Made by a program: the position numbers and the translations under genes
Notes under the pieces: generated by a model
Databases searched by the model: none
Seen by the model: the letters and a program-made list of their open reading frames with translations, nothing else
Told to the model about the DNA's origin: nothing
Shown: positions 30,532 through 53,485 of the stretch, piece by piece
Position numbering within the stretch: position 1 is the first letter of the stretch
Layout of the letters: the number at the start of each line of letters is the position of its first letter
Assembly (NCBI GenBank): GCA_963769025.1
Contig: CAVYKI010000003.1
Span: 416,001 to 480,000, forward strand
DNA from: an uncultured Verrucomicrobiae bacterium
Lineage (GTDB): Bacteria > Verrucomicrobiota > Verrucomicrobiia > Chthoniobacterales > Chthoniobacteraceae
Direction: 5' to 3'
DNA: 64,000 bases

Positions 30532-30931
30532 ATGAAACTTTCCAAAGAGGCCCGCAAACTTTCCAAGCAGCTTTTCCGTGAGAGCTTCACGGGCGGAGCG
30601 CTGGACGCAGCGAAGGTGGGCAGTGTCACGGACACGGTCATCCGCGCGAAGCCCCGCCAGTACATCGGCGTGCTCAAGGAATTTGCCCGCCTCATCCGCC
30701 TCGAAACCGCCCGCCGTCACGCGATCATCGAGAGCGCTGCGGAATTGGAACCGGCCGAGAAGGGCGCGATCACCCGCACCATCCACGAAAAGTACGGCGC
30801 GGATGTGACCACCGAATACACGACGAATCCCGCGCTCATCGGCGGGCTCCGCATCCAGGTCGGCAGCGATGTCGTGGACGCCAGCGTCCGCATCGCGGCT
30901 CGACCGCCTCGCGAACGATCTCGCAGCCTAG
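30532..30931 (+). CDS. atpH: F1 ATP synthase subunit delta, short form (frameshift near 3' end)
   Basis: NPALIGGLRIQVGSDVVDASV; position between atpF and atpA. Confidence 0.88.
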
Positions 30932-30938
30932 TTTTCCC

Positions 30939-30963
30939 CAACACTCAACTCTCAACTTTCAAC
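30939..30963 (+). repeat. Heptamer repeat (CAACTCT-like) before atpA
   Basis: CAACACT CAACTCT CAACTTT CAAC. Confidence 0.7.
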
Positions 30964-30976
30964 ACGCACCTTCGCC

Positions 30977-32511
<1,535 letters not shown>

Positions 32512-32524
32512 CCGAAACCCGACC

Positions 32525-33424
32525 ATGGCCGCGAACACCCGCGACATCCGCCGACGCATCAAGTCGGTCAAGAACACGTCGCAGATCACGAAGGCGATGC
32601 AGATGGTCGCGCGCTGCGAAGATGAAGCAAGGCGCAGGACAGCGCGCGCTCAACGGCCGTCCCTACGCCGAGACTCGCTGAACAAGGTGCTGCGTCGCTC
32701 TGCACAGGCCGGCGGCAGCGAGGAACTCGCACCCGCTTCTCGCAGGAGCGCAAGGAGTGAAACGCGAGCTCGTGCTCGTCATCACCACCGACAAGGGCCT
32801 CTGCGGCGCGCTCAATACGAACCTGCTCCGCGAAGCTGACCAAGTTCGATCCCGCGAAGACCACCTTCGTCACCATCGGCCGCAAGGGCTCGCAGTTCCT
32901 CGGCCGCCTGAAGCGCAACCTCGTCGCGGACTTCGCGCTGAAGGAGGCGTTCACCTTCCTCGAGTGCAAGCAGGCGTCGCAAGTTCTGCATCGAGAAATT
33001 CCTCACCGGCGAAGTGGACAAGGTCACCGTCGCCTACACCAACTTCATCAACACGCTGCGGCAGGAGCCGACGCTCGAAGCTGATCCTGCCCGTGCAAAA
33101 CTTCGATGCGTCGACTCGAAGGCGCTGCATGGCGCGAAGACCGACGTCGCGCCGCGAAACACCGACCGAGTATCTTTTCGAACCGAGCGCCGAGCGGCGT
33201 GCTGGAGCATCTCGTGCCGCACTACGTGAACTTCACCGTCTATCAGATGGTGCTCGAAAGCCGCGCCTCCGAGCACAGCGCGCGCATGGTCGCGATGAAG
33301 AACGCGACCGACAACGCGAAGCAGCTCATCAAGGACCTCACGCTCGAATACAACAAGCTCCGCCAGGCCGCGCATCACCACCGAACTTCTCGAAATCACC
33401 ACCGCGCAGATGGCGCTCGGCTAA
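32525..33424 (+). CDS. atpG: F1 ATP synthase subunit gamma (several frameshifts)
   Basis: [41 protein letters not shown]. Confidence 0.95.
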
Positions 33425-33433
33425 TCCGTCATC

Positions 33434-33460
33434 CAACTCTCAACTCACCGACTCTCAACC
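33434..33460 (+). repeat. Heptamer repeat (CAACTCT-like) before atpD
   Basis: caactctcaactcaccgactctcaacc. Confidence 0.65.
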
Positions 33461-33462
33461 AC

Positions 33463-34879
<1,417 letters not shown>

Positions 34880-34881
34880 CT

Positions 34882-34981
34882 GGTTGAGAGGTGAGGGTTG
34901 AGAGTTGAGAGTCCCGGACTCGCCACTCTGGCCCAAACACTGAAAAGCACGCCTCTCGACTCTCGACCAACAACTCTCAAC
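34882..34981. repeat. Inverted arrangement of heptamer repeats between atpD and atpC
   Basis: GGTTGAGAGGTGAGGGTTGAGAGTTGAGAG ... CTCTCGACTCTCGACCAACAACTCTCAAC. Confidence 0.7.
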
Positions 34982-34988
34982 TTCCAAA

Positions 34989-35405
34989 ATGGCTGCCACT
35001 CTCCACCTCGAAATCGTCACTCCTGAGTCACGCGCTTACAGCGACGACGTGGAGCTGGTCGTACTTCCCGCCATCGAGGGCGAGATGGGCGTCTACCCGC
35101 AGCACGTCCCGCTCATCACCGCGATCACGCCCGGTGAACTCATCGTCACCAAGGACGGGAAGACGACGCACCTCGCCGTCGGCGAAGGTTTCGTCGAGAT
35201 CACCGGTGACAAAGTCAGCGTCTTGGTGGACATGGCGCTCACCGAGGAATCGATTGACGAAAAGGCTGCCGAAGAAGCCGTGAGACGTGCCGAAGCACGC
35301 CTCAAGGAAGAACACATCGGCGAGGAGGAATCTGCGATGGTACAGGCGGCCATCGCCAAGTCGCTCGCCCAGCTCCACGTCAAGCGCCGCCGGCGCTCGG
35401 TGTAG
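34989..35405 (+). CDS. atpC: F1 ATP synthase subunit epsilon
   Basis: LEIVTPE, GEMGVYPQHVP, GFVEI. Confidence 0.95.
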   Translation: MAATLHLEIVTPESRAYSDDVELVVLPAIEGEMGVYPQHVPLITAITPGELIVTKDGKTTHLAVGEGFVEITGDKVSVLVDMALTEESIDEKAAEEAVRRAEARLKEEHIGEEESAMVQAAIAKSLAQLHVKRRRRSV

Positions 35406-35479: not shown

Positions 35480-35965
35480 TCAGACCTGCGTCTGCTTTGG
35501 ATTGATCCAAATCTCCCCGGCTCGCACCTCGACCGGATAGCGAGGCAGCGGACGTGGCGGCGGACCGGCAAGCACGCTGCCATCCCTGGCGCTGAAAAAT
35601 CCCTCGTGGCACGGGCAATAGAATTGCCGCTTGTCGTGCTGGTAATTCACCGGGCACATGAGGTGTGTGCAACTCTGGCTGTACGCGGCGAACTCATTTT
35701 CACCCAACCGCACGAGGATCGCGGGATGATGCTCCGTGGGATATGCGAAGAGCTTGTAGCCACCGACCGGCACCTCCTCGACGCGCGCGATGAACTTCGG
35801 CTCGGTCGCGGCAGGCATCGGGAAGAGTTTGTCCTTCGCAAGCCAGCCTGCACCGACGGCGAGCGCGGAGCAGCATGCGACCTTCGCGAATGCCCGGCGT
35901 GTCACATCGTGCTCGGCTGATTGGCGGATGGGGTAACCGGATTTCCAATGAGACTGGTCAGACAT
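35480..35965 (-). CDS. Rieske [2Fe-2S] protein with twin-arginine-like N-terminus
   Basis: CTHLMC / CPCHEG; TRRAFAK plus hydrophobic stretch; GPPPRPL. Confidence 0.9.
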   Translation of the reverse strand: MSDQSHWKSGYPIRQSAEHDVTRRAFAKVACCSALAVGAGWLAKDKLFPMPAATEPKFIARVEEVPVGGYKLFAYPTEHHPAILVRLGENEFAAYSQSCTHLMCPVNYQHDKRQFYCPCHEGFFSARDGSVLAGPPPRPLPRYPVEVRAGEIWINPKQTQV

Positions 35966-35974
35966 CGGGTGTAA

Positions 35975-36676
35975 TCAGTGGCAGGTGCAGGTTTCTGAGC
36001 AACGCGCGCCGAGTTCGGCCTCATTCCAGACCGCAGCGCCCGCAGCATCCGGCGCTCCGGCGCGGGTAAGTGAAAACGGATCGAAGTCCTTTCCCTCCCA
36101 CGGAAGGAAATCGAGCACCTCGAACGGCAGCGCCTTCAACTCCGGCGAAGTCATCATGTTCACCTTCGTGCGCACGGTCTGACGGCCAAATTGGAACTCA
36201 TTCACGGGCTGCTCGCGGCGGAATTTCTCAATGTATTCGCGCGGACCGTAGTAGAGCGCGCCGCTCGGGCAGACCGTCGCGCACATCGGCTTCTTCCCGA
36301 CGCTCGTGCGGTCGTAGCACATGTCGCACTTCATCATCAGGTCGATCTCGACCTTCATCTTCGGCACGCCGAACGGGCATGCGATCACGCAGTTCGAGCA
36401 CGCCACGCAACGCGGCTTGGCTGCGCTGTGGACGACGCCATGGTCATCCTGCTTGATCGCATCCGCCGGGCACACGCGCGCGCAGGTCGGATCCTCGCAG
36501 TGCATGCAGACGACCGGCGCAGTCTGCACTCCGGTGGAGCGATGCACGTATTCGAGATGGATCATCGGCTGGCCGCGATGCGTGCCGCATTCCCCACAAG
36601 CCTGCACGCACGCCTGGCATCCGATGCAGCGCGACGGATCGAGGAAGAATTCGTTGCCGTTCAGCGCGCCGTTCAT
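35975..36676 (-). CDS. Four-cluster (DmsB/FdnH-like) Fe-S protein
   Basis: [52 protein letters not shown] overlap with the Mo subunit. Confidence 0.92.
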
Positions 36677-38895
36677 TTGGTTTTCAACGGCATCGGCTGG
36701 CCGGCGGCGGCGGGCTTGGGTTTCGGCGCGTCGGAAACTTTCTCCACCCGGCACGCACAGACCTTGAACTCGGGAATCTTCGATATCGGATCGAGCGCAC
36801 GGATTGTCACCTGGTTCGCGGCCTTCTTGCCCGGCCAGTGATACGGGATGAACACCGTGTCGGGCCGGATGCTCTTCACGACTTGCGCGGGCACGGTGAT
36901 GTCACCACGTCGCGTCGTCACCTTCACGATGTCGCGATCCTTGATGCCGAGCTTCTCGGCCAGCAGCGGGTGCATCTCACACAGCGGTTCGGGGTATTGA
37001 TCCACCAGGCCGCCGATGCGTCGCGTCTGCGTACCGCTGAGGTATTGCGAGACGACGCGGCCAGTCGTGAAAAAGATCGGGAACTCCGCGTCCACATCCT
37101 CGGCCGGCGGCCGGTAGTCGTAGGCGTGGAATTTCGCGCGCCCATCCGGGTGATGGAACTTCCCGCCCTCAAACAAGCGCGGCGTGCCGGGATGCTCGGG
37201 CGCGGGGCACGGCCAAAAGACGCCCATGTTGTCCTCGATCTTCTCGTAGGTCATCCCGCTGTAATCAATCGGCCCGCCCTTCGATGCCGCGGCGAGTTCG
37301 GTGAAAATCTCCCCGGCGCTCTTGTAGTGGAAGAACTTCTCCTTGCCGAGCAGTTCGGCCAGTTCGCAGATGATTTTCCAATCCACCCGCGCGTTTTCGG
37401 GTGGCGAGACCGAATTGCGCAGCCGCACGCAGCGCCCTTCGCCGGTCGTCACGGTGCCCTCGTCCTCCTCCTGCAAGGAACCCGCGAGCACGACGTCCGC
37501 GTAGCGCGCGGTCTCGCTGAGGAAGAAGTCTATGCAGCCAAAAAACTCCAGCTTCTCGAGCGCCTTGCGCGTGCGCTCGGAGTCGGGGATCGAGACGAGC
37601 GGATTGAAGCTGATCGAGAGCAGCCCTTTGATTTCCCCCCGCTCGATCGCGTCAATGATCTCGCACGCCGTGAGCCCCTGTTTCGGCAGCTCCGGCTCGG
37701 GGATTCCCCAGAAATCCGCGATAAACTCACGGTGCTCCGGCTTGCCGATGTCCCGCCCGCCGGGGAGCTGGTTGCACCTCTGTCCATGCTCCCGTCCACC
37801 TTGTCCATTCCCCTGCCCGGTGATCGTGCCGTACCCGGAGCCGGGCTTGCCGATGCGTCCGGTGGCGAGCACGAGATTGATGTAAGTGAGCACGTTCTCC
37901 GTGCCCTTCGTGTGATGCTCGATTCCGCGCGCGTGCATCAGCATCGAAGTCTCCGCCGGGCCCCACATCTCCGCCGCGGCGATGATGCTCTTCGCCGGGA
38001 CTCCGGTGATCCTTTCCGTCACCTCGGGCGTGAATTTCTTCACCAGCTCGCGGACTTTGTCGAAGTCGGTCGTGTGCTCGGCGATGAACTTCTCGTCCGT
38101 CCACCCGCGCTCGATCATCACGTGCAGGATGCCATTCGCCAGTGCGCTGTCGCGGCCCGGCCGCACGGGCAGGAAAAGGTCCGCCGTCCGCGCGATCGGC
38201 GTGATGCGCGGATCAATGACGATGATTTTCGCGCCCGCATCACGCGCCCGCCAGACGTAGTCGGTGAGGATCGGGAAGCACTCGGCGAGGTTCGTCCCGG
38301 TGAGGATGATCACCTTTGCGAGCGGGATGTCGCTCCACGGATTCGCCGCGCGATCCACGCCGAACGCCATGCGGTTCGCCGAGCCCGCGGCGACCATGCA
38401 GAGACGGCCGTTGTAATCAATGTTCGCGGTCTGCAGCGCGATGCGCGCGAACTTGCCGTTGAGGTAGGCCTTCTCATTCGTCATCGATGCGCCCCCGAGA
38501 AATGCAAATGCGTCCTTCCCGTACTTGGCCTGGATGTCCTTGATCGCATTCGCCGTCTTGTGCATCGCCTCGTACCAGCCGGCCTCGCGGAAGCCGGTCT
38601 CGTTGCGAATGAGCGGCGAGAGGAGACGGTCCGGGTGGTCGTTCTGCATGTAACGCTTCACGCCCTTCGGACACAGTTTGCCTTGGTTCACGGGGAACTC
38701 CTCCCACGGCTCAAATCCGATGACCTTGTTGTCCTTCACCTTGAGCTGGATGCCGCACTGCACGCCGCAGAAGCAGCAGTGTGTCTTCACGAGCTTGTCC
38801 GGCTCGCCGTTGTTCCAGCCACCCGCCGGCGTGTGCGCGGGCGTCGGACCGTAGTTCTCGATGTATTTTTCTTCCGGTAAAGTGAGCGTGGCCAT
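36673..38895 (-). CDS. Mo-bisPGD oxidoreductase, assimilatory nitrate reductase (Nas/NarB-like) catalytic subunit
   Basis: [13 protein letters not shown] 4Fe-4S, NGRLCM (Mo-Cys), [17 protein letters not shown]; no Tat signal; nitrate operon context. Confidence 0.88.
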
Positions 38896-38905
38896 GAATG
38901 GTTAG

Positions 38906-39988
38906 TCAGCGGCCGATCGTGCGGCCTTGGTTGAGCGCGAGCAGCCGACGGCGGCATGCGGGGCAGATTTCCTGATAATGCACCTCGCCCTGCGCGCCAT
39001 CGAAGCGGTAGTCGAAGCCGAGTTGGTCGAGCACGGTCTTCAGATCGTCCACGTGCATCTGGCTTGCGAAATCTTCCCCACACCGCCGGCAATGCGCCCG
39101 CGTTCCCGCTTCGCCGACCTTCTTGTAGCGGCTCACGCACAGAGAACACGTGCGCTGGAACATGTGAAAAAGTTTTCCGAACGGAATGTAGAGCAGAAGA
39201 GAGACGACGCTGACCATGTGGACGATCGCCCAGATGCCGTGCCCGCGCCCGGCGAGAAATTTGTAGCTCACCGTGAGCGCGAGGCCCGTCGCTGTGACCG
39301 CGAGGATGAGCAGCAGCGGGACGATGTCCTCGGAAAAGGTCTGCGTAGCACGCTCACCCGCATCGGTGAAGCGCCGCCAGCCTGCCATCGCCAGCCCGAC
39401 GAGCACGAGGATCGCCGAGATGTTCAGCAGATTGAACATCAGAAACGCCTTGAAGCTGTGGACGCTGAAGCTGTCCACATTCACGCCGAACGCAGCCACA
39501 TGGTACATCTCGGCGTCGTCGGCAAAGGAAGCGAAATGGATCCAGCCGAACACCAGCGGGAAAGTGATCGCGAATGCGAGCGTGCAGCCGCCCGAAAGGC
39601 ACAGGTGCATGATCCAGCGGTAGCCGCCACGCCGTCGGATGAAATCCTGCGCCACGAAATTTCGCGCCAGCGCATAGCCGAGAGTCCCCGCTCCGTGCGG
39701 CACAGGCACGCTGACCTTCTCGGCGCGCTTCTCCGCGTGAGGCGCCGCTCCGGCCCGACGGAACAGGAGCTCAATCCCCCGCCGGAAGTACATCCGCGAA
39801 GGCGGCCTCTGCGCCCACACCGAGAAGCGATAGCCGACCGCAAACGCCGCCATGAGCGCCCCGATCGCGTAACCGGTGAGCGCCGCATCGAAATGCCGCA
39901 TCCCGATGGAACCGATAACAATCGCCGCGGCGGTCGCGCCTGCCAGCATCACACCCGCGATGAGAGCCGATCGGTTCGGGAGCTTCAT
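38906..39988 (-). CDS. Integral membrane protein, NarI/DsrM-like, with C-terminal CxxC..CxxC
   Basis: About 6-7 TM helices; His in WIMH, IVHM and YIPFGKLFHMF; C-terminal CRRC..CPAC. Confidence 0.6.
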   Translation of the reverse strand: MKLPNRSALIAGVMLAGATAAAIVIGSIGMRHFDAALTGYAIGALMAAFAVGYRFSVWAQRPPSRMYFRRGIELLFRRAGAAPHAEKRAEKVSVPVPHGAGTLGYALARNFVAQDFIRRRGGYRWIMHLCLSGGCTLAFAITFPLVFGWIHFASFADDAEMYHVAAFGVNVDSFSVHSFKAFLMFNLLNISAILVLVGLAMAGWRRFTDAGERATQTFSEDIVPLLLILAVTATGLALTVSYKFLAGRGHGIWAIVHMVSVVSLLLYIPFGKLFHMFQRTCSLCVSRYKKVGEAGTRAHCRRCGEDFASQMHVDDLKTVLDQLGFDYRFDGAQGEVHYQEICPACRRRLLALNQGRTIGR

Positions 39989-39997
39989 GGGCGCGGT

Positions 39998-41711
39998 TCA
40001 CTCCTCATTGGAAAAGAACGCCTGGAGCGTGTTGAGATCGTGCCGCGCGGTGAAGGCTTGGAAGGTCTCACCCTCCGTGCGGTGGCGCAGGTAGCCGCGC
40101 AACATTTTCTCGATGAGCGGCGGCAGACTGTCGAAGGCGATGCCGTTGAAAACCTGACGGCCCACGGCCTGATGCGCGCCGAATCCGCCGCCGACAAAGA
40201 CGTGATAGCCGTCCTGACTTTCACCCATGACTTTCACCTTCGTGCCGAGCAGGCCGATGTCACCCATGTAGTGCTGCGCGCAGGAATTCGGGCAGCCGGT
40301 GACGTGGATGTTCACGGGCTGGTCCAGCTTGATGCGCTTGTCGAGCCAGTCGGCGAGCTTGAGCGCGTGGCCCTTCGTGTCGGCCTGCGCGAATTTGCAA
40401 TACGAGTTGCCCGTGCAGGCGATGAGGCCGCTGCGGAGGTTCGACTGCTCCGTGTCGAATCCGACTTTGCGCAGCGCCTTCTTCACCGTTGCGACGAAGT
40501 GATCAGGCACGTTCGGGATGATGAAATTCTGCCAGACCGTGAGCCGGATTTCGCCGGAGCCGTAAAGGTCGGCGATCTCCGCGATGCGGATCATCTGCTT
40601 TGGATTGATGTGGCCGACGGGCACCGCGACGCCGACGTAATTCAGCCCTGCCTGCTTCTGCGGAAAGATGCCGACGTGCGAATGCGGCAACGTCTGACTC
40701 GGATGCTGGGCAGCCGCCAGATCGAGCGGCGCGCGCTGAAGCTGATAACCGAGCAGCTTCTCCGTCTCGGCGAGATACTGATCGAGCGACCACTTTTCGA
40801 GCAGGTGCTTGAGACGCGCCTTCTTCCTGTCGGTGCGGTTGCCATTCGCGATATAGACGCGCACCACCGCGGCGACGACCTTGTTCAGTTCGGCGGGCTT
40901 CACCAGCACCCCGATGTCGCGCGCGAACGCCTTGTGCCCGGTCGCGCCGCCGAGCGCGATGCGGAAGAAAACCTCGTCGCCGACCTTCACGGCCTTGCAG
41001 CCGATGTCATTCGTGTCCTCGACCGTGCCGATCAGTCCGCCGCCGTCGTAGGCGATGTTGAATTTGCGCGGCAGATCGTAAAAGGCGCGGTCGTTGATGA
41101 TGAGGTGCCCCATCTCGTGGCAGAGCGGCATCACGTCGATCAGCTCGTGCGGATCGATGCCCGCCGTCGGGTTTGCCGTCAGATTGCGGATATTGTCCGC
41201 GCCCGACCCCCGTGTGTGCAGGCCGACATGCTGGATGCGCTGCACAAACGCCGGCGTGTCCTTCGGCTGGATGAGCCGCATCTGCAGGTTCGCCCGCGTG
41301 GTGATCTGCACGTAGCCGGTCGTGAGATCCTTCGCGACTGTGCGCGAGTTCGCGGAGCTGGAAGGTGCGGAGCTGTCCGCCGGGAATCCGCAGCCGCGCC
41401 ATGAAGGCCTCCTTGTTTGGCGTGAGGTAAAAGAGCCCGTTCCACTTGAATCGGAACGTATCCTCCTTGTCCGGCGCCTTGTTCGTCGCCGCGTTCTCAA
41501 GGAGCTGCGGATAGGCGTCGAGCGGATGCAGTTCGCGCTTCACGCGCTCCTCGAAGATGAGGTCTTCCAGCGCGACCTTCGTCTCAGTGGCGGGATTCGG
41601 CGCGACATCGCCAAATCCGACTCCGCGCGCGGAGATGCCGGCGAAAAGCCCGGTAAGATACTCCTTCTGCTCAGCGGTGAAATTCTGTGCGTTGGTGGCT
41701 GTGGCACTCAT
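39998..41711 (-). CDS. nirA: Siroheme nitrite reductase NirA family (one frameshift near 41340)
   Basis: TTRANLQ, DNIRN, LPRKFN, CTGNSYC and GCPNSC siroheme/4Fe-4S ligands. Confidence 0.9.
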
Positions 41712-41714
41712 CGT

Positions 41715-43505
41715 TCAATAGACATCGCGCTGGTAGCGTTTCTCGCCCTTGAGCCGCTCGACGTAGGCCTTTGCCTCATCGCTGGATTTTCCGCCCGCCG
41801 TCTCGATGATCTGTGTGCAGCGCGGCGTCCACATCCTTCGCCATGCGCGAGGCGTCGCCGCAGACGTAAAAGTGCGCGCCGGCTTCGAGCCACGACCACA
41901 GCTCCGCGGCGGCTTCGAGCATCCGCGATCTGCACGTAGATTTTCTCCGCCTGGTCGCGGCTGAAGGCGAGATCGAGCCGCGTGAGATGACCGTCCGCCA
42001 CCCAGCCTTCGAGCTGCTCCTGGTAGAGGAAATCGGTCGCGCGTTTCTGATCGCCGAAGAAGAGCCAGTTGCGCCCCTTCGCTCCGGTCGCGAGGCGTTC
42101 CTCGAGGAACGCGCGGAACGGCGCGATGCCGGTGCCGGGGCCGACCATGATCATCGGCGTGTCGCCGTTCGTCGGGCGGTTTGAAGCCATGCGACGGCTG
42201 GATGTAAACGGGCACGTCGCCGGTCTCACCGACGCGGTCGGCAAGGAAGGTCGAGGCGATGCCCTTCCGGCTGCGGCCATGCGCATCGTAGCGGACGGCG
42301 GCGACGGTGAGATGCACTTCGTCCGGATGCGCCTTGAGGCTCGATGAGATCGAGTAAAGGCGCGGCGCAATCTTCTTGAGCAGCGCCACGAATTCCTGCG
42401 GCGCGAAGCGAACCGGTCAGACATCCGAGCACGTCCATGACTTCGCGTCCGTAGAGCCATTTCTTCAGCTCGTCCTTTTTCGACGGATCGAGCAGCGGCG
42501 CGAAGATGGCGTCCGGCGAATGCTTCGCGACGGCGGCTCAGGAGTTCGGCGGATGGTTTCGTGATGTCGAAGTGCTGCGTCAGCGCGAGCCGCAGCGGCA
42601 GTTCGCCATCCACGGTCTTGACGGCTTCCTCGCCGTCACAGCGGAGCGTCGCGAGAATTTCGCCGACGAGCACCGGACAGTTGCTCGGGAAAACGCCGAG
42701 CGCGTCGCCCACTTCGTAGGTGAGCCCGCTGCCTGCGAGTCCAGATCTCAAAATGCCGCACGTCCTTGCCGGAGCCTGTCGGCGCTGAGCCTGCGATTCG
42801 TGAGGAGCCGCGCCGGGAAAGGCTTCTTCCGCGACCAGGCCGATGCGCCTTCGGATTCCACGGTGGCGCTGCCGTTGGAACCGTTGGCTCCGGGCTGCGG
42901 CTTCACCGCTGCGCCCAGCGCATCGAAAACGCTCGCCGTCCATTCGGCTGCGGGAGTTTCGTATTCCACGTCGCACTCCTTCCGGTCGGCTGACGCGCTT
43001 CGCGCCGAGCGCGGCAAGGCGCTCGTCGCAGAATCTCCCGAACTGGCAGAACGCCGAATAATTCGTGTCACCGAGCGCGAGCACGCTGTAGCGCACGTTT
43101 TCGAGCTTCGGCGCGGCGTCGCTGTTCAGCCATTTCCAAAATCCCTGCGCCATGTCCGGCGGATCGCCGTCGCCGTAGGTGCTCGTGATCACGAGGACGT
43201 TCTGTTCCTTCGTCAAATCCACGTCGGAGTACTTGTCCATGCTCACGAGCTTCGGCGCAAAGCCGCGGCCCTCGGCGACCTTCGGCGGTCTTTTTCGCGA
43301 GCCCTTCGGCGGTGCCGGTCTGGCTGCCGTAGAGGAGAACGAGCGGCGTCTTCGGGCCGGCGTCCAGGCCGAGCGTGGAGGCGAGCGCTTCCGCTCCGGG
43401 CGGGTTGGCGTTGGAGAAAACACCGGCGAGAAAACCGTTCAGCCACATCCGCTGTTCGGCGGTGAAGGGGGCGTTTTCGGGGATGAATGGAATGCGGTTC
43501 ATCAT
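41715..43505 (-). CDS. CysJ-like diflavin (FMN/FAD/NADPH) reductase (several frameshifts)
   Basis: [42 protein letters not shown]-terminal RYQRDVY. Confidence 0.88.
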
Positions 43506-45150
43506 CGCGAAGTCACGAGTTTCAAAGCCAGGGCGATGCACGCGGCGAGCAGCAGCCAGAAGCCGGTGCGGTAGAATCCGAGCGGATTGCGTTCGATGAG
43601 GGACGTGCCCTTTTGAAAGAACGGCTCGACGCTGTCCGGGTGTTCGAGGTCGAAGGCCAGTTCGCTGAAATGCCGGTAGCGACGCTCGGGATTGATGCTG
43701 ATCGCGCGCAGGATGACGTGGTCGAGCCACGGCGGAATGATCTGGGTTCAGAGCGCTCGGTGGCTTCGGCGGATGGAAAACGGGCGACTGGAAGCGCTCG
43801 ATTTCGCCGAACGGAAACTTGCCGGGTGAGCGCCTCGTAGAGCGTGACGCCGATGGCGAAAATCTCGGTGCGTTCCGAAATCGGCTCGCCGTGAAATCGC
43901 TCCGGCGCGAGGTAGCTCGCCGTGCCCGCGCGAGACGTGACGCTGAAGACTGCCGCGGCGCTGCCGAAGTCGATGAGCTTGAAGCGCAGCTTGGCGTAGT
44001 CGGAGACGACGAGCACATTCTCGGGTTTCACGTCGCCATGCACCAGGTCGAGTCCGAGCAGGCGCTGGCCGGCCTTGGCGAGCATCCTGCCGAGCGCCAC
44101 AGCTTCATCCGGGCCGAGCGCACGCGCCTTGAGCACGCTCTTGAGACTCGGCGCCTCGACGAATTCCTGGACGTAGTAGCGCGCCGTGGCCCTCTCGGGC
44201 GTGAAGGCCGCGACGAACAGGTCGGGCGCGGCCTCCGCGGCACGCTGCGCGTTCCATTCCTCCTTGATGAAGCGCGCGAGGATCTCCTCGTCGTCGCGCG
44301 CTTCGAGCGGCGCGAACTTGATCGTCCAGCGCTGGTCGTCCTTCGTCGCGAGCCATACGCGGTCACTGTGCTGAAACGGACGGACGAGTTCGTAGCCGTC
44401 GATCACATCGCCCTTGCGCAGGTGTCCGGAATCTGGAGCGGGAGCTGGCTCACGGCGCGCAGCATACCAGCCCTCACGATATCGATCACGATCGCACTCG
44501 CGTCATCGAGCGTCTCCTCGGTCGCGAGTTCGCGCGCCTGTTGCACGATGGCGCGGGCGGCGGTGTGATGGGTGAGCCGCTCCGAGAGGACATCATCGCT
44601 CAGCACGTTGGAAACGCCGTCGGAGCAGAGGAAGGCGATGTCGCCGTCGCGCAGCTCGGTCTCGAAGCAATGCGGCTCAACGTCAGGCGCGAGGCCGATG
44701 GCGCGCTGGAGGACGTGGGAGAATGTGCGGTCATTGATGACGTGATCGTGCGAGAGCTGCGAGAGCTGGCCGCCGCGTGAGAGATAGACGCGCGAGTCGC
44801 CGACATTCAGGCCGAAGAGCCGGTTGCCCTCGATGACTGCGACCGAGAGCGTCGAGATCATCTCTGGTGCGGAGTGCCTCACGAGCGATTCGTGGTGCAG
44901 CGTGTGGTTGATGATTTTGGTGAACTCCGAGAGAGCGCGCTGCGGGCTCCAGCTAGCCGGGCGCACGGCGTAATTGGTCATCAGCGATTTCACAATCCGC
45001 CTGGCCGCCTCACGTGCATCGCGCGCCGCGCCCGCGCCGTCGGCGAGCACGGCGATCACGGTTTCGTCCCACGCTTTCACGGCGAAGGAGTCCTCCGATT
45101 CCGCGCCGTCCCGCTTTGCGCACGCCGTAGCTGGTGAAGTTCACTTTCAA
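43502..45150 (-). CDS. Bifunctional PP2C phosphatase / Ser-Thr kinase with C-terminal TM (frameshifts)
   Basis: ADG, NVGDSRVY, CSDGV, DDAS; HGDVKPEN, DFG, YLAPE; C-terminus LIERNPLGFYR plus TM; TTG start inferred. Confidence 0.85.
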
Positions 45151-45161
45151 TATTTCAGGGC

Positions 45162-46373
45162 TCAAATCCTCGCCGCTGAGACCGCGCCCCACGTCGTGCG
45201 CCAGCGGGTCTTGACCAGTTTCAGTCCGATCAGTGCGAAGAGGCAGAGGCTCGCGAAGACGAGCAGTCCGCCGAGATAGCTGCCGAAGTGCTCCTTGCTC
45301 TGGCCCATCATGTTCGCGAGCAGGAATCCGCCGAGGCCGCCGCCGCAGCCGACGAGGCCGGTCATGAGCCCGAGTTCCTTGCCGAAGCGCTGTGGCAGGA
45401 GCTGGAAGACGGAGCCGTTGCCCATTCCGAATGCGCCGCATGCGACGAAGAATGCCGCGACATTCAGCCAGAGGTTTTCGATGAGTCCGCCGAGAATGAG
45501 CGCGACGCACGCGACGCTGTAATAGACATGCAGCGAGCGGATGCCGCCGATGCGGTCTGAAATCGCGCCGCCAACCGGGCGGCCGAGTGCGCCGATCGCC
45601 GTGCAGAGTGCAACGAGATCGCCCGCCTGTGACGGTGAGAGGCCGAAGCGATCCTTGAAATACATGCCGAGCGAGTAGGCCAGGCCGACGAAGCCGCCGA
45701 AGGTGACGGTGTAGAAGAAGCAGAACCAGTGAACGTCCTTGTCGCGGAACATGCCGAAGTAGTCGCGGAGCTTCTTTGGCGTCGCGGGGTTCGGCGGCTC
45801 CTTGGAAAAGATGATGTAGATCGCGAGCACGAATACCGCCGGTATGAGCGCGAACCCGAACACCGCCTCCCAGCCGTAGGCGGCGGCGAGACGCGGTGCG
45901 AGCAGCGAGTCGATCACCACACCGATGTTCCCGGCACCGGCGAGACCCATCACGAGGCCCTGCATGTTCGGCGGGTACCAGCGCCCGGCCTGCGGCATCG
46001 CCACTGCGAAGCTCGCGCCTGCCACTCCGAGGACCATGCCCATCAGCAGCGTTGCCTCGTAGTTTTTCAGCCCGAAAATCCACGCCACGGCCAGTCCGGT
46101 CATCACGACGAGTTGCGCGATGATCCCCGTGCGCTTTGCCCCGATGCGATCCACGAGCAGCCCGAGCCCGAGCCGGAAGACGCCGCCAAACAGGATCGGC
46201 ACCGAAACCATGAAGAACCGCTGCTGTGCGCTGAGATTCAGCGACTCCGGCGCGGCGATCTGGTTCGCGAGGACGCCGAGGAGCGTCCAGACCATGAAGC
46301 TGTAGTCGAAGTAGAGGAACGCCGTGACGAGCGTCGGGAAGTGGCCTGCCTTTTTGAGCGCGGAGAGGTTCAA
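45162..46373 (-). CDS. narK: MFS nitrate/nitrite transporter (NarK/NasA family)
   Basis: GHFPTL..FLYFD, GLAGAGNIG, FGGFVG, RPVGG, GMGNGSVFQ; TTG start inferred. Confidence 0.9.
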   Translation of the reverse strand: MNLSALKKAGHFPTLVTAFLYFDYSFMVWTLLGVLANQIAAPESLNLSAQQRFFMVSVPILFGGVFRLGLGLLVDRIGAKRTGIIAQLVVMTGLAVAWIFGLKNYEATLLMGMVLGVAGASFAVAMPQAGRWYPPNMQGLVMGLAGAGNIGVVIDSLLAPRLAAAYGWEAVFGFALIPAVFVLAIYIIFSKEPPNPATPKKLRDYFGMFRDKDVHWFCFFYTVTFGGFVGLAYSLGMYFKDRFGLSPSQAGDLVALCTAIGALGRPVGGAISDRIGGIRSLHVYYSVACVALILGGLIENLWLNVAAFFVACGAFGMGNGSVFQLLPQRFGKELGLMTGLVGCGGGLGGFLLANMMGQSKEHFGSYLGGLLVFASLCLFALIGLKLVKTRWRTTWGAVSAARI

Positions 46374-46428
46374 ATGGGAGTGTTGGTGGTTGTTTTCGAT
46401 GCACCCCGAAAGGTGTGCGCTCCCCCTT

Positions 46429-46444
46429 AGCCGATGCGATGCCA
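46429..46444 (-). promoter_or_regulatory. Sigma54-like -24/-12 element upstream of narK
   Basis: TGGCATCGCATCGGCT (GG-N10-GC; -12 region non-canonical). Confidence 0.5.
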
Positions 46445-46480
46445 GCACGGCTCCACTGACAAGATGAGGGCTCTTCAAAG

Positions 46481-46511
46481 TTTTCATGGAAAAGATGCAT
46501 TCCGTTCATAC
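46481..46511. promoter_or_regulatory. Putative LysR box, copy 2
   Basis: 24/31 identical to 53455..53485; contains ATG-N9-CAT (T-N11-A). Confidence 0.7.
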
Positions 46512-46876: not shown

Positions 46877-48295
46877 TCAGAACGTGATCGTCGCCTGCAC
46901 GTAGCCGAAGTCAGCGTCGCTGTGGAAGCCGGTGTCCTTGAGGTATGTGCCGGAGAAGAAGTGGCTGTACCCGCCCTGCACTTGCAGATACTTGTTCACG
47001 TTCCACGTCACGACGAAGGCCAGTTCGGACCCGACGTAGGAGTCCGCTGCCCTGGAAGCCGCGTTCAACGGGCGCACGGCGGTGAGGCCGTTTGCGCGGT
47101 ACCACACGTCGTTCGTGTCCGCGAGCCAGAAGGAATTGAAGTCCAACTGCGCGGTGACGTCCTTCGCGGGCGTCACTTTGAAGCTCAGCATCGTGTTGTG
47201 CAGATTCTGCCAGGCGAAGAGATCCATGACCCCGTAGAACTTGTGGTTCGTCGGGAACAGGTTCTGGAAGGTGCCGATGCTGCCATCCGCGGAATTTCCG
47301 TCACCCGACGCGTAGTTGTATTCGGCGTAAAGGCGCGGCTTCAGCGGCGCGTCGAAGTTGTAGCCGATGCCGGCGGCTGCGGCGAAGGCCTCGAGATTCA
47401 GCCCGCGCACGTCGCCCACCTGATAGGCGAGCTCGGTCATGAATTCCAAGCCATCGAGCTTTTTCGGATCGCCTTTCACCCGGGTGCCGAGCGTGACGAA
47501 GTCGCTGTGCCGCGCGTTCGATCCCGTCGTGACCGGTGCGGCGAGCCCGCCCTGCACATTCGAGGTATTCCCGCGCGGCTCATTCACGACCAGCGAGTAG
47601 AGATCGAGCGTGCCAAAGGGCAGCGAGTCCAGCGTGGCGTAGATGCCGCTGAAGACGAGCCCGCGATTCGTCTCGGTGCCATTGAAGAGATCGGACTGGT
47701 TGTAGTGCTTGCCGGTGATCACGACGGGCGTGGAGGTGAAGGCATCGATGGAGAAGCCCTTGCCCTTGTACGTGAGCTTCACGGCGTCGAACGTGCGGCC
47801 GAAGTTGTTCCACTCGAAGGCACCGACGAGACGCTCATCGCCGTAGGAGAGAATCTGCCGGCCCACCTTCAGGCCCCACGAGGACTTCGAATAGTCGGAG
47901 ATGTCCACGTATGCCTGACGCAGGTCGAATGAGTCGTCGCCCTCGGCACCGGCGGCGCCGGGGATCAACGGACGGCCGGAGAAAAACTCGCGGCTGTCCT
48001 GCGCCTGTCCGTAGATTTTCAGCCACGGCACGGGCTTGAGCATCATGCCGATGCGGAAGCGCTGGAGCAGCCAGCCGTCGTCGGTCACGGCATTGACGCC
48101 GCTGCGGAAATCGAAGTTGTTGTCGCGGATTTCCCAGCGGAGGCGCTCCTGGATGTCGAAGACGACCGTGCCGTCTGCGAAGCTGAGCAGCGGACCGGGA
48201 TCGGCCTTTTTCGGCTCGGGTGTTTTCGCGGGGCCGGCGATGGCGTTGCCGGCGAAGAGGACGGCAGCAAACAATGTCGTGATGTGTGGTTTCAT
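46877..48295 (-). CDS. Alginate-export (AlgE-like) outer-membrane beta-barrel
   Basis: Signal peptide, LRQAY, KVGRQ..YGDERL, FPTNHKFYG, C-terminal YVQATITF. Confidence 0.82.
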   Translation of the reverse strand: MKPHITTLFAAVLFAGNAIAGPAKTPEPKKADPGPLLSFADGTVVFDIQERLRWEIRDNNFDFRSGVNAVTDDGWLLQRFRIGMMLKPVPWLKIYGQAQDSREFFSGRPLIPGAAGAEGDDSFDLRQAYVDISDYSKSSWGLKVGRQILSYGDERLVGAFEWNNFGRTFDAVKLTYKGKGFSIDAFTSTPVVITGKHYNQSDLFNGTETNRGLVFSGIYATLDSLPFGTLDLYSLVVNEPRGNTSNVQGGLAAPVTTGSNARHSDFVTLGTRVKGDPKKLDGLEFMTELAYQVGDVRGLNLEAFAAAAGIGYNFDAPLKPRLYAEYNYASGDGNSADGSIGTFQNLFPTNHKFYGVMDLFAWQNLHNTMLSFKVTPAKDVTAQLDFNSFWLADTNDVWYRANGLTAVRPLNAASRAADSYVGSELAFVVTWNVNKYLQVQGGYSHFFSGTYLKDTGFHSDADFGYVQATITF

Positions 48296-48349
48296 GGGTG
48301 TTTTCGTAGGTGTTGGTGGTTTTGCTGTCTGGGAGTTCTTTGGGATTTG

Positions 48350-49183
48350 CTAGGCTGCCGTTGGCGACATCTGCGCGACGGGAGGTGTGCCGTGCGGAGT
48401 GCGCAGGTGCGCGCCGACCTCGAGGAAGTTGATGAGCCGCGAGCGCAGCGGCGCGTAGTCCGCGTGCTCCATGATTTCCTTGCGATTGCGCGGGCGCGGG
48501 AAACTCACAGGCACGATGTCGCCGATGGTCGCCTCGGGGCCGTCGGTCATGCACACCACGCGATCGGAGAGGAAAAGCGACTCGTCCACGTCGTGCGTGA
48601 CCATGAGCGCGGTGATGCGCTCCTTCCGCCACAGGTCGAGGAGCACCTGCTGGAGTTCGTAGCGCGTGAGCGCGTCGAGCATTCCGAACGGCTCGTCGAG
48701 CAGCAGCATCCGCGGCTTCAGCGCGAATGCGCGCGCGATGCCGACGCGCTGGCGCATCCCCTGCGAGAGTTCCGCAGGCCGCTTGTGCATCGCGTCACCG
48801 AGGCCGACGACGGTGAGGTAATAGTCGGCGATCTGCCGGCGCTCGGCCTTCCTCGCGGTGTAGAAGACCTGGTTGATGCCGAGCATCACGTTTTCAAACG
48901 CTGTGAGCCACGGGAGCAGTGATGGCGATTGGAAGACCATCGCCGCGATCCGGGCCGGGGCCGGTGAGTTCCTTGCCGAGCGAGAATGATGCCGCCCTCG
49001 GTCACGCTGCTGAGCCCCGCGACCATCGATAGCACGGTGCTCTTGCCGCAGCCCGAGTGGCCGATGAGGCAGACGAATTCGCCCTTCTGAATCTTGAGGT
49101 TGAAGTCCTTCACAATCACCGCCGGCGCCCTTCGGCGATGGATACGTCTTTCCGAGCTGGGACAGTTCGCAGTAGGCGCTCAT
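48350..49183 (-). CDS. nrtD: Nitrate ABC transporter ATPase (frameshifts)
   Basis: [29 protein letters not shown]. Confidence 0.88.
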
Positions 49184-50103
49184 TTCTCCACCTCCACTTC
49201 CGCGTGCTGAATCTCACTGCGGCGGATCGGTCCCCGATCCCCGAACCACGGGAGCGCCCTGCGGGGCAACGACAAATCCTCGGGCTCGATGTCCGGAAGC
49301 ACGAGCTTGCGGTCGAGTGTCGCCTTCCGGCTGTGCGCGCTTTTCAGGAGGTATTCCACGAGCTCGAGCCGGATGCGTTTGAAGTCCGGATGATCGGCGA
49401 TGGTCTTGCGATCGCGCGGGCGGGGAATGGTGATGGGAATGGACATTCCGAGCGTGGCATTCGGCCCCGCGGTGAGCGGGATGACGCGGTCGGCGAGCAG
49501 GATGGCCTCGTCGGGATCGTTCGTGATGAGCACGATCGTCGTGTCGTCCTCGCGCTTGATGCGCGTGACTTCGTCCTGCAGGTTGGCGCGCGTCAGGGCG
49601 TCGAGCGCGCTGAGCGGTTCATCGAGCAGGAGCACGCGCGGCCCCATCGCCAGCGCCCGCGCCACGGCCACGCGCTGGCGCATTCCGCCGGAGAGCTCGC
49701 GCGGCAGTTTGCCGGCGGCGGGCGTCAGATTCACCATGGCGATGTATTTCTCGACCTGCTCGCGGCGCTTTGCCGCGGTCCACTGCGGGAAGACCTGATC
49801 CACGGCGAGCGCGATGTTTTCGTGGACGGTGAGCCACGGGAGCAGGCTGTAGTTTTGAAACACGATGCCGCGCTCCGGCCCCGGGCCGGTGATCGGCTTG
49901 CCCTCGAATCGCGCCGAACCCCTGTCCGGGGCGACGAGTCCGCTGAGCATGTTGATGAGCGTGGTCTTTCCAGCGCCGGAAAAGCCGACGATGGCGACGA
50001 ACTCACCCTCTTCGACTTCAAGGTTGATGTCCGACAAAACCTCCGTGCGGTCCCACTTTGGCCCGAAGCCTTTGAATGCGCGTTCTATTTCGAGGAATGG
50101 CAT
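49180..50103 (-). CDS. nrtC: Nitrate ABC transporter ATPase (no NrtA-like C-terminal domain)
   Basis: GFSGAGKTT, VFQNYSLLPW, LSGGMRQR, LDEP. Confidence 0.85.
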   Translation of the reverse strand: MPFLEIERAFKGFGPKWDRTEVLSDINLEVEEGEFVAIVGFSGAGKTTLINMLSGLVAPDRGSARFEGKPITGPGPERGIVFQNYSLLPWLTVHENIALAVDQVFPQWTAAKRREQVEKYIAMVNLTPAAGKLPRELSGGMRQRVAVARALAMGPRVLLLDEPLSALDALTRANLQDEVTRIKREDDTTIVLITNDPDEAILLADRVIPLTAGPNATLGMSIPITIPRPRDRKTIADHPDFKRIRLELVEYLLKSAHSRKATLDRKLVLPDIEPEDLSLPRRALPWFGDRGPIRRSEIQHAEVEVEK

Positions 50104-50106
50104 ACG

Positions 50107-50992
50107 TTAGGCGGTCTTGAATCGTGATTCCACCAGCGACATCAGGCGGTCGAGCAGGAGGCCGATGATGCCGATGGTGAGGATGGAGAGGATGATCTGC
50201 GCGTAGTGGTTTGCGTTGTATTCCTGCCAGAGGAAGCCGCCGACTCCGGGGCGGCCGGTGAGCATTTCCACGGCGACGATGACCAGCCACGCGATGCCGA
50301 GCGAAAGACGGAAGCCGGTGAACATGTAGGGCAGCGTCGCAGGCAGCAGCACCTTGAAGAGCGTCTTGCTGCGCGAGAGTTTCAGCACGCGGGCGACGTT
50401 CAGGTAGTCCGGTCGGCACGGCGCGCACGCCGACGGCGGTGTTCATCACCGTCGGCCACATCGCGCAGATCGCGATGGTGAAAAGTGCGGCGGCGTCGCT
50501 CGCGCCAAAGACCGTCCTGCCGGAGCCGTCGAGCAGCTTCACCGAGCTGAAGAGGATCAGCCCGAGCGGAAACCACGCGAGCGGCGAGACGGGACGCAGC
50601 ACCTGGATGATCGGATCCATCGCCTTTGTGAACGTCTTTGAGAGCCCGAGGAAGAAGCCGAGCGGCGTGCCGATGATCAGCGCGATGAAGTAGCCCTGCA
50701 TCACGAGGCTGAGCGAGAGCGCGGCGAACGCGAGGATGCCCTGGTCGAGCTCGCCGCGCTTCGCGAATGGCTCCACGATGTAGAGCTTGCTGGACTTCCA
50801 TGTCTCCGCCGGCGTGGGGAGGTCGGCGGAGATGCCGGTGCGGACGGTCCTCACGACCGGGTCACCAAAATCGTCCACGGATCTCGTCACCGTTTCGCGC
50901 CCTGCGATGGCCAGCCACAGCATCAGGAAGGCGGCAAGGCCGATGCAGGGCAGCAGCAGGCTGTCGAGTTTGTAGCGTTTGATGAAGTCCAT
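50107..50992 (-). CDS. nrtB: Nitrate ABC transporter permease (one frameshift)
   Basis: LRPVSPLAWFP, WPTVMNTAVGV, LGIAWLVIVAVEML. Confidence 0.9.
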
Positions 50993-50995
50993 GCT

Positions 50996-52293: not shown

Positions 52294-52312
52294 GTTGATT
52301 GGTTGGTTGGTT

Positions 52313-53369: not shown

Positions 53370-53402
53370 GGCTGGCGAATAGTTTGCGATGGCCGGGCTG
53401 CC

Positions 53403-53418
53403 AGCGGGCGCCGTGCCA
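53403..53418 (-). promoter_or_regulatory. Sigma54-like -24/-12 element upstream of nasS-like/nrt operon
   Basis: TGGCACGGCGCCCGCT (GG-N10-GC). Confidence 0.55.
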
Positions 53419-53454
53419 GCATGCCAAGCGGAGCATCAGAAATTGCTTGCGAGT

Positions 53455-53485
53455 TTTTCATCTGCAAGATGAATGCCATTCATAC
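53455..53485. promoter_or_regulatory. Putative LysR box, copy 1
   Basis: Palindrome ATGAAT-GCC-ATTCAT (T-N11-A) immediately before the LysR ATG. Confidence 0.75.

Follow-up and report, generated by a model that had tools for sequence, protein, structure and literature searches.

A four-gene unit conserved across bacterial phyla predicts a membrane-bound, Nas-type nitrate reductase with a NarI-fold subunit and a Rieske protein

The DNA analyzed here, hereafter the window, is a stretch of 64,000 nucleotides from the genome of a soil verrucomicrobium (assembly GCA_963769025.1, contig CAVYKI010000003.1, positions 416,001 to 480,000; genome of 5.34 Mb, 83% complete; G+C content of the window, approximately 64%). 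Four intact, closely packed open reading frames (ORFs) on its minus strand, at 35480-39988, encode in transcribed order a membrane protein (M), a molybdenum subunit (A), a four-cluster ferredoxin (B), and a Rieske protein (R). The unit, M-A-B-R, recurs in the same gene order across phyla. We hold with moderate confidence that its products form one membrane-bound, quinol-fed nitrate reductase facing the cytoplasm, in which a redox loop like that of NarGHI is built around a Nas-type enzyme.

RESULTS

Anatomy of the M-A-B-R unit

M (38906..39988, minus strand; 360 residues) is a six-helix membrane protein with a NarI fold and a putative di-haem cytochrome b, and it ends in a cytoplasmic domain with four conserved cysteines (Cys4 domain). 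A (36673..38895, minus strand; 740 residues) is a catalytic subunit apparently of the NasC/NarB kind, of the molybdenum bis(pyranopterin guanine dinucleotide) (Mo-bisPGD) enzymes, with an N-terminal [4Fe-4S] motif and the pair Cys166-Met167. B (35975..36676, minus strand) has 233 residues counted from its ATG, although a longer GTG frame extends to 36754, and is a cytoplasmic ferredoxin for four [4Fe-4S] clusters that belongs to the FdnH/HycB/DmsB/NarH superfamily. R (35480..35965, minus strand; 161 residues) is a Rieske [2Fe-2S] protein made of an N-terminal tail, a TRRAFAK sequence, one membrane helix, and a head with the boxes CTHLxC...CPCH.

As read on the sequence, 9 nt separate the stop codon of the preceding gene, nirA, from the start of M, 10 nt separate M from A, an ATGA overlap joins A to B, and 9 nt separate B from R. 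A first-pass annotation of the window, made from the letters alone, had described four tightly spaced genes at the end of the nirA operon, and its coordinates, overlap, and gaps are all borne out. The motifs that it quoted are likewise present, namely, NGRLCM in A, PFGKLFH and CRRC...CPAC in M, and TRRAF in R.

The gene order is conserved across phyla

More than 1,935 of the 8,000 candidates scored are relatives of M, with 983 cluster representatives at an E value of 0.001 or better. Loci were scanned with one genome per species and mapped by tblastn; at least 592 species genomes matched, from which 80 loci were retained. Of these, 58 extend 4.6 kb or more downstream of M, and in 57 of the 58, M is followed by A, B, and R in that order and on its own strand, so that the four-gene arrangement reflects more than chance. 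The idea that the four genes belong together, which the annotation had drawn from a single locus, is therefore matched elsewhere, and across phyla. The loci span at least six phyla, with carriers in Verrucomicrobiota, Acidobacteriota, Planctomycetota, Gemmatimonadota, Chloroflexota (Herpetosiphon), Obscuribacterales, and Acidimicrobiia. All four ORFs are complete in 55 of the 80 kept loci, and overlaps of 4 or 8 bases are common. There is also a cultured carrier, by database name Chthoniobacter flavus Ellin428, whose M is 82% identical to that of the window. Approximately 1.4 kb lies between A and B in locus L003 (12359-13794).

A relative of the nitrate transporter NarK adjoins M-A-B-R in 40 of the 52 loci with enough flanking sequence, directly upstream in 33 and downstream in 7. 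Natural gene fusions tie the same partners together. Three proteins (P0124, P0160, and P0173) join a major facilitator superfamily (MFS) part, 35 to 38% identical to the NarK of the window, to M, and two others (P0216 and P0235) join M to the start of the Mo subunit. Many 360-residue relatives of M, including the protein of C. flavus Ellin428, are named "MFS transporter, NNP family, nitrate/nitrite transporter" in the databases. This naming was probably carried over from the NarK-M fusion proteins.

A resembles assimilatory nitrate reductases

A contains three Pfam domains, Molybdop_Fe4S4, Molybdopterin, and Molydop_binding, and no additional one at its C-terminal end. A and B have no signal peptide, as none of the N termini of 55 relatives combines an RR motif with a hydrophobic stretch. 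Both observations agree with the first-pass description of a Mo subunit devoid of a twin-arginine translocation (Tat) signal and of a C-terminal BFD domain. The best curated family of A is NCBIfam NasC, at 829.6 bits; the formate dehydrogenase model Fdh-alpha scores 631.7 bits. Among solved chains, its closest relatives are FdhF-type formate dehydrogenases (E value of 4e-148), because no Nas structure is among the solved chains listed. Once A is aligned to these chains, Cys166-Met167 falls opposite Cys/Sec-His and Thr359 falls opposite Arg. We take that His and that Arg to be catalytic residues of formate dehydrogenase, and the Cys-Met pair presumably marks the Nas/NarB enzymes.

The FdhF-type relatives and the Fdh-alpha score of A could also be taken to mean that A is some other Mo-bisPGD enzyme, for example, a formate dehydrogenase. 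We regard this as highly improbable, since NasC scores higher, A has Met167 and Thr359 in place of the His and Arg of formate dehydrogenases, and the adjacency of NarK and the context of nirA and nrt genes point to nitrate. In addition, the genome has just one further Mo-bisPGD gene, for an NAD-type formate dehydrogenase, and it ranks the two models in the opposite order from A: its middle piece scores 328 bits with Fdh-alpha versus 174 bits with NasC, and its other two pieces rank likewise. Judged from its sequence, A is most likely a cytoplasmic nitrate reductase, in keeping with the Nas-type motifs that the annotation had seen in the Mo subunit. No other candidate nitrate reductase appears in this genome as assembled (83% complete), where the sole match of the NarG model TIGR01580 is A itself, with 23.6 bits against a cut-off of 1084.15, and where no NirB/NasB, NrfA, or NirS model passes its cut-off.

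M has a predicted NarI fold and a possibly HycF-like cytoplasmic domain

The sole Pfam family found in M is Nitrate_red_gam (PF02665), with 24.7 bits against a cut-off of 22.9. Compared alone by sequence with solved chains, M gave nothing meaningful (best E value of 0.6), and a Foldseek search gave no match at an E value of 0.001 or better, though NarI chains ranked 2 and 5 to 8 at a probability of 1.00. The AlphaFold2 (AF2) model of M has a mean predicted local distance difference test score (pLDDT) of 91.4 and a predicted template-modeling score (pTM) of 0.86. In the VIA structure search, M matched Mycobacterium smegmatis EtfD with Z of 11.7 (root mean square deviation [rmsd] of 4.6, 228 residues aligned) and Escherichia coli NarI with Z of 11.0 (rmsd of 5.0, 178 residues aligned), and the next match had Z of 7.9. 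Furthermore, the profile of the M family finds E. coli NarI at an E value of 8e-4 and aligns H257 to H187 and H275 to H205 (numbering of the printed chain), two NarI residues that we take to be haem ligands. Among 160 M sequences, H128 is kept in 158, H257 in all 160, and H275 in 157, and the outer-loop residue Y162 is kept in 158. The expected fourth haem ligand, H151, is a histidine in 141 of the 160. These data speak against a transporter fold with nonconserved histidines, an outcome that the annotation had allowed for. Its label for M, "NarI/DsrM-like," holds for NarI and is looser than the data for DsrM, the measured likeness being to NarI and EtfD.

The charges of the loops of M were compared. 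The loop at residues 58 to 123 has 13 Lys plus Arg and 4 Asp plus Glu, and the beta loop at residues 150 to 178 has none of the former and 4 of the latter. This distribution fits a predicted topology of six helices with both termini inside and the 150-178 loop outside, and the NarK domain fused ahead of M agrees with an inside N terminus.

The cysteines of the Cys4 domain (C300, C303, C342, and C345) are kept in 155 to 156 of the 160 M sequences. Folded alone, residues 278 to 360 reach a pLDDT of 89.9, and their best structural match in the VIA search is HycF residues 112 to 165 (7z0t_F), with Z of 6.2, an rmsd of 1.8 over 52 residues, and 27% identity (next match, 4.3). The corresponding sequence matches to HycF are weak (E values of 8.5e-4, 7.6e-3, and 0.034). 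According to the available portion of a report on formate hydrogenlyase, the extension at the C terminus of HycF has a Cys quartet that binds one metal, tentatively iron, contacts HycB, and faces an acidic patch of FdhF (PMC9474812). By analogy, and given a modest match, the Cys4 tail of M may serve as a dock for the B-A module, because the domain resembles HycF, the closest solved relatives of A are of the FdhF type, and the profile of B finds HycB.

B and R carry invariant cluster ligands

B matches Pfam Fer4_11 (71.9 bits) plus other Fer4 families, and the 16 cysteines of its four cluster motifs are invariant in 40 sequences. The B profile finds FdnH (E value of 1e-29), HycB (2e-21), and NarH (3.5e-13). 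At the C terminus of B (35975-36010), there is an extra cysteine-rich tail, CSETCTCH; a similar tail occurs in L003 (14450-14522), and it is absent from other phyla.

R matches Pfam Rieske with 44.6 bits. Its twin arginine is kept in 62 of 62 relatives and lies in the motif TRRAF(AK) in the R of the window; TatC is present in the genome. In 46 sequences, R23, R24, C99, H101, C104, C117, C119, and H120 are invariant. The resulting boxes, C99-T-H101-L-x-C104 and C117-P-C119-H120, are presumably the signature shared by bc1, b6f, and AioB proteins, including both disulfide cysteines. Ahead of its RR motif, R retains a tail in which W7 is nearly invariant. G122 and F124 are invariant in the same 46 sequences, and we take it that high-potential Rieske proteins have Ser and Tyr at these positions. 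The replacement of Ser/Tyr by Gly/Phe therefore suggests that the R cluster has a lower potential. The best curated match of R is the arsenite oxidase small subunit (TIGR02694; E value of 1.6e-12), and Rieske equivalog models remain under their cut-offs (e.g., PetC, 45.4 versus 250 bits).

The Rieske head is predicted to cap the outer face of M

M, B, and R were predicted as one complex from matched 40-row alignments of our own for each chain; R was scored as the partner, and A was left out. R obtained an interface score (ipSAE) of 0.71, the median of 0.67, 0.77, and 0.71, and the best of three controls obtained 0.15. Agreement between runs covers 93% or more of the contacts, and the partner pLDDT is no lower than 80. 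In the calibration of the tool, 116 of 157 solved complexes and 2 of 215 mismatched pairs attained this mark, counts that apply only roughly here because our own alignments and three chains were used. We are not aware of any solved structure in which a Rieske protein is combined with a NarI-fold protein, and the prediction is therefore unlikely to reflect memorization of one by the model.

In the predicted complex, residues 13 to 18 of R contact residues 62 to 78 of B, and the R helix (25 to 48) packs against M residues 46 to 50 and 266 to 267. The cluster loops of R (102 to 108, 118 to 122, and 133 to 137) are placed against the outer face of M (151 to 162, 176 to 185, and 241 to 254), so that the Rieske head would cap the region of H151, Y162, and H257. 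Since the tail contacts B and the head contacts the outer face of M, B and the Rieske head would lie on opposite sides of the membrane. An exported Rieske protein with a bc-like branch, as raised in the first-pass annotation, gains support from the twin arginine in 62 of 62 relatives and from this predicted position of the head.

The sidedness of the model bears on an arrangement in which A, B, and R would be exported together on the Tat signal of R, as in arsenite oxidase, to give a periplasmic nitrate reductase on a quinol-oxidizing M. R is the sole subunit with a twin-arginine motif, and in AioAB one partner is exported on the Tat signal of the other subunit. The lineage would also suit this arrangement, AioA being reported, in the part of the study available, to have diversified from NasC/NasA (PMC7331816). 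However, the prediction has B on the R tail upstream of the RR motif and the helix, hence on the opposite side from the head, and the docking-type Cys4 domain of M lies on the positive-inside face. The conserved pre-RR tail, with its nearly invariant W7, argues for an uncleaved anchor, and the nitrate importer adjacent in 40 of 52 loci, sometimes fused to M, would also be at odds with a periplasmic enzyme. We consider export of the three subunits very unlikely.

The same model leaves two other roles for the Rieske head to be weighed. First, the head could be the point of electron entry from a periplasmic donor (a cytochrome c, a cupredoxin, or an oxidizing enzyme), with M a mere transmembrane wire and no quinol oxidized. 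The predicted position of the head, outside and with its cluster loops against M, would be suited to such a role. So would the best curated match of R, the arsenite oxidase small subunit, a protein that exchanges electrons with soluble periplasmic carriers, and NarI itself needs no Rieske protein. Nevertheless, the conserved unit includes no cytochrome c or cupredoxin gene, the cluster tip is buried against M, so that an outside donor would require movement of the head, and both nearest folds of M, NarI and EtfD, are quinone-reactive modules. On balance, we find entry from the periplasm unlikely.

Second, quinol oxidation could be split as in bc1, one electron passing through the M haems to nitrate and the other through the Rieske head to a periplasmic acceptor and then to an oxidase. 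R bears a signature of the bc1/b6f/AioB type, in which none of the four cysteines varies, together with a Tat anchor, and its head is predicted on the outer face of M beside the distal haem region. On the other hand, a partner resembling c1 or f is not encoded, the fold of M is not that of bc1 cytochrome b, and the invariant G122 and F124 argue for a lower-potential cluster. Moreover, nitrate, with a potential of +420 mV, would require no bifurcation for its reduction by quinol. A split of this kind thus seems improbable to us, and a quinol-fed enzyme that delivers its electrons to A is the reading that we prefer.

Genome context and the soluble-donor alternative

Upstream of M lie nirA (39998..41711, minus strand), for a ferredoxin-type nitrite reductase with sirohaem, and a cysJ-like flavoprotein gene (41708..43505, minus strand) with flavodoxin, FAD, and NAD domains (Pfam and NCBIfam cysJ). 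The nirA product was scored against the NCBIfam NirA family PRK09567 in two parts, because the gene is present in two frames in the assembly with a break near 41338; the long part reached 629.9 bits and the N-terminal part 99.6 bits. The cysJ-like gene is present in several frames.

The presence of a cysJ-like gene in the same operon would fit a soluble donor (the CysJ-like protein with NADPH, or a ferredoxin or flavodoxin) that feeds A-B, M and R then acting only as a tether by NarK or in regulation. The NarK-M fusions also fit pure tethering. Pairings of NasA with CysJ in alphaproteobacteria are mentioned in the available text of PMC4013037, which concerns NasA-CysJ and eukaryotic enzymes. 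However, nirA and cysJ-like genes accompany M-A-B-R only in Verrucomicrobial loci (L002, L005, L006, and L009), and the four-gene unit is kept across phyla without them. The invariant putative haem-ligand histidines, the Rieske ligands, and the sixteen cysteines of B argue for redox use of these subunits. There is, in our opinion, little chance that a soluble donor feeds the enzyme in this way, and we continue to favor a quinol-fed M-A-B-R.

The operon continues upstream, on the minus strand throughout, with a Ser/Thr protein kinase (43522-44406; Pfam Pkinase), a PP2C phosphatase (44403-45080; Pfam PP2C_2), and a NarK-type nitrate/nitrite MFS transporter (45162..46487; NCBIfam TIGR00886, 257.6 bits). 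Directly upstream of narK is an outer-membrane porin of the Alginate_exp type (46877-48295, minus strand; Pfam Alginate_exp), followed by an nrtABCD-like ATP-binding cassette transporter (48350-52049, minus strand; Pfam NMT1_2, BPD_transp_1, and two ABC_tran). A divergent LysR regulator closes this nitrate locus of approximately 17 kb, in which the part from the porin to LysR occupies 46877-54388. The order is thus nrtABCD-like, porin, narK, PP2C, kinase, cysJ-like, nirA, and the M-A-B-R unit; beyond R comes the convergent operon for ATP synthase (30532-35405, plus strand), whose atpC ends at 35405. This context, with nirA, narK, and nrt-like genes, agrees with the assimilatory role assigned by the first-pass annotation, although the role may not be purely assimilatory, given that the genome holds NirK (contig 3, 243896-244775, outside the window; split in two frames scoring 219 and 124 bits). 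Since M-A-B-R is the only nitrate reductase candidate, the nitrite that it produces might also feed NO production.

The kinase and PP2C pair, placed here between narK and the cysJ-like gene, is also found beside narK in the Verrucomicrobial loci L002 and L003, and in L006 it lies nearby on the opposite strand. The pair hints at phospho-regulation of nitrate uptake or assimilation. Weaker porin matches also occur near M-A-B-R in L002, L010, and L046. The N termini of the nirA (41711) and cysJ-like (43505) products open with a similar short motif, FTAEQ..L.G..AG; from its sequence, this shared start may be a docking or targeting segment of NirA-family and sulfite-reductase-alpha-like proteins.

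Frame breaks divide the ATP synthase operon, nirA, and the cysJ-like gene, so that each is spread over more than one reading frame. Where nirA is broken (41338/41339), contigs of related organisms from other public runs are without one base, and in the cysJ-like gene, single-base differences from such contigs occur at no fewer than 6 sites (41809-43284), one of them in a run at least 99% alike. Inside 35480-39988, no single-base difference from the contigs of other runs is listed. The breaks in nirA and the cysJ-like gene are therefore read as insertion errors of the assembly, because the atp genes are also fragmented and the contigs of other runs lack the bases at the breaks. We rejected as less likely the view that these two genes are pseudogenes, given that the essential atp operon is broken likewise. 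It seems that one-base insertions are scattered through the assembly, and they may also explain its completeness estimate of 83%.

DISCUSSION

Proposed mechanism

The working model that we favor is as follows. NarK and the Nrt-like transporter would import nitrate, which A would reduce to nitrite in the cytoplasm at a Cys-ligated Mo-bisPGD, and NirA, with the CysJ-like flavoprotein, would take nitrite to ammonium. M would be a cytochrome b of NarI fold whose cytoplasmic, HycF-like Cys4 domain helps to dock B-A, and the four [4Fe-4S] clusters of B would wire A to M. R would be inserted by the Tat system, with its N-terminal tail remaining in the cytoplasm to clamp B, its helix packed on M, and its [2Fe-2S] head capping the outer face of M next to the distal haem site. 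Quinol, probably menaquinol, would be oxidized at an outer site formed by the distal haem region of M and the Rieske head, and its protons would be left outside. Electrons would then cross the membrane through the M haems to the clusters of B and on to the [4Fe-4S] cluster and Mo of A. Of these steps, haem binding by M, the identity of quinol as the donor, and the part taken by the Rieske cluster are ones that we infer, and what the data show directly is the gene anatomy, the conservation, the fold, the fusions, and the genome context.

Several points weigh against this model. The cofactors, the donor, and the activity of M-A-B-R are predicted from sequence and models, and the complex score expresses model confidence for three chains, from our own alignments and with A excluded. 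Two subunits fall short of curated cut-offs, A for NasC (829.6 versus 1100 bits) and M, by far, for the NarI equivalog TIGR00351 (20.2 versus 105.55 bits). At the proposed distal site, H151 is a histidine in only 31 of the 40 complete M-A-B-R loci and in 23 of 42 divergent cluster representatives; this residue (approximately 39536-39538 in the window) is Ser, Gly, Arg, Gln, or Tyr in the remainder of the complete loci, so the distal haem may be ligated differently, or unusually, or be missing in some members of the M family. Because NarI works without any Rieske protein, the R cluster is not required for quinol-fed nitrate reduction, and the CysJ-like flavoprotein in the operon makes a soluble donor possible in principle. 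The unit is also patchily distributed, a sample of 200 other genomes from the phylum having M in only 1, and one locus departs from the rule: in L067, from a Phycisphaeraceae metagenome-assembled genome (10102-13167), MgtC comes after M and A, and neither B nor R occurs within 6.6 kb. Finally, the absence of other nitrate and nitrite reductases is provisional because the genome is 83% complete, and the nitrite need not all be assimilated, because the genome has NirK.

Comparison with known systems

One of the closest known systems is the respiratory enzyme NarGHI (E. coli, PDB 1Q16). As in NarGHI, a cytoplasmic Mo-bisPGD subunit is combined with a four-cluster iron-sulfur subunit and a NarI-fold membrane subunit, two histidines of M align with H187 and H205 of NarI, and NarK is a frequent neighbor. 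The two systems differ in that A is NasC-like, with a Cys ligand, and not a NarG (23.6 versus 1084 bits), and B is less than half the size of NarH and scores 31.8 bits with the narH model against a cut-off of 524, which indicates superfamily kinship only. M, for its part, exceeds NarI by two N-terminal helices, an outer loop of beta sheet, and the Cys4 domain at its C terminus. In addition, M-A-B-R includes a Rieske subunit with a Tat anchor, the unit is without a NarJ-like gene, and the operon context is here assimilatory.

Classical assimilatory nitrate reductases are soluble and are fed by ferredoxin, flavodoxin, or NAD(P)H. A has the same domains as the soluble NasC (Bacillus), NarB (cyanobacteria), and NasA enzymes, as well as Cys-Met at the position of the Mo ligand, and like them it lies in an operon with nitrite reductase and nitrate transporters. 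In contrast, A is accompanied by a protein with four clusters, an anchor resembling cytochrome b, and a Rieske protein, and not by a ferredoxin, a flavodoxin, or NasB. Wells et al. (2020) state, in the available passages, that canonical four-cluster or membrane-anchor subunits do not accompany any member of the Nas/Aio/Nap/formate dehydrogenase clade (PMC7331816). A related gene linkage has been described for Bacillus bataviensis, where nasC is linked to genes for an iron-sulfur protein and a Rieske-type protein as a possible alternative assimilatory system (Heylen and Keltjens, 2012; PMC3475470). As that report describes it in the part available, there is no membrane subunit, topology, or mechanism, and the iron-sulfur protein is called a hybrid-cluster protein; going by this description, the linkage is probably the same A-B-R core.

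R resembles the Rieske proteins of the bc1 and b6f complexes in its Tat anchor and its CTHLxC...CPCH boxes, and the predicted position of its cluster tip, on the outer face of a membrane protein with putative haem b, is also like theirs. Unlike in those complexes, M has the NarI/EtfD fold and not that of bc1 cytochrome b, none of the four genes encodes a cytochrome c (no c1 or f), R has Gly/Phe for Ser/Tyr, and the low-potential end would lead to a Mo enzyme rather than to a Qi site. AioAB likewise combines a Mo-bisPGD subunit related to the Nas clade with a Rieske subunit that has a Tat signal. The Aio models nonetheless stay under their cut-offs here (TIGR02693, 146.9 versus 359.05 bits; TIGR02694, 47.5 versus 95.65 bits), and AioAB is wholly periplasmic, with neither a four-cluster subunit nor a membrane anchor. 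In the available part of the study by Wells et al., AioA is also described as having no amino acid ligand to Mo and as having probably diversified from NasC/NasA (PMC7331816). Lastly, FdhF, HycB, and HycF of formate hydrogenlyase (PDB 7Z0S/7Z0T) resemble A, B, and the Cys4 domain of M, respectively, the last match being modest; M is, however, a NarI-fold protein and not a complex-I-like arm, and the substrate and the direction of electron flow differ.

Phrase searches of the literature, with subscription journals outside their scope, returned no biochemical description of a membrane-bound or quinol-dependent assimilatory nitrate reductase or of a NarI-like protein together with a Rieske protein. 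M-A-B-R is most likely undescribed biochemically as a membrane-bound nitrate reductase.

Implications

M-A-B-R contradicts the rule published for the Nas clade, as stated in the available text of PMC7331816, in at least 592 species genomes, many of them of abundant soil Acidobacteriota and Verrucomicrobiota. A bolder proposal, which we put forward as speculation that may well fail, is that M and R are a third, independently built Rieske/cytochrome-b quinol oxidase, with a Rieske head on a NarI fold, a Qo-like outer site, and an inner end feeding a cytoplasmic Mo enzyme in place of a Qi site; that M-A-B-R is the ancestral setting in which the Nas lineage gave rise to the Mo and Rieske pair of arsenite oxidase; and that many soil genes called nasA or nasC mark an energy-conserving nitrate assimilation linked to the respiratory chain. 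If the enzyme is quinol-fed, nitrate assimilation in these bacteria would draw on the respiratory chain and could conserve energy. Counts of "assimilatory nasA/nasC" in soil metagenomes would then hide a membrane enzyme of possibly mixed role, and the placing of a Rieske protein on a NarI fold would be a new build of a quinol-oxidizing site that might also bear on how arsenite oxidase originated.

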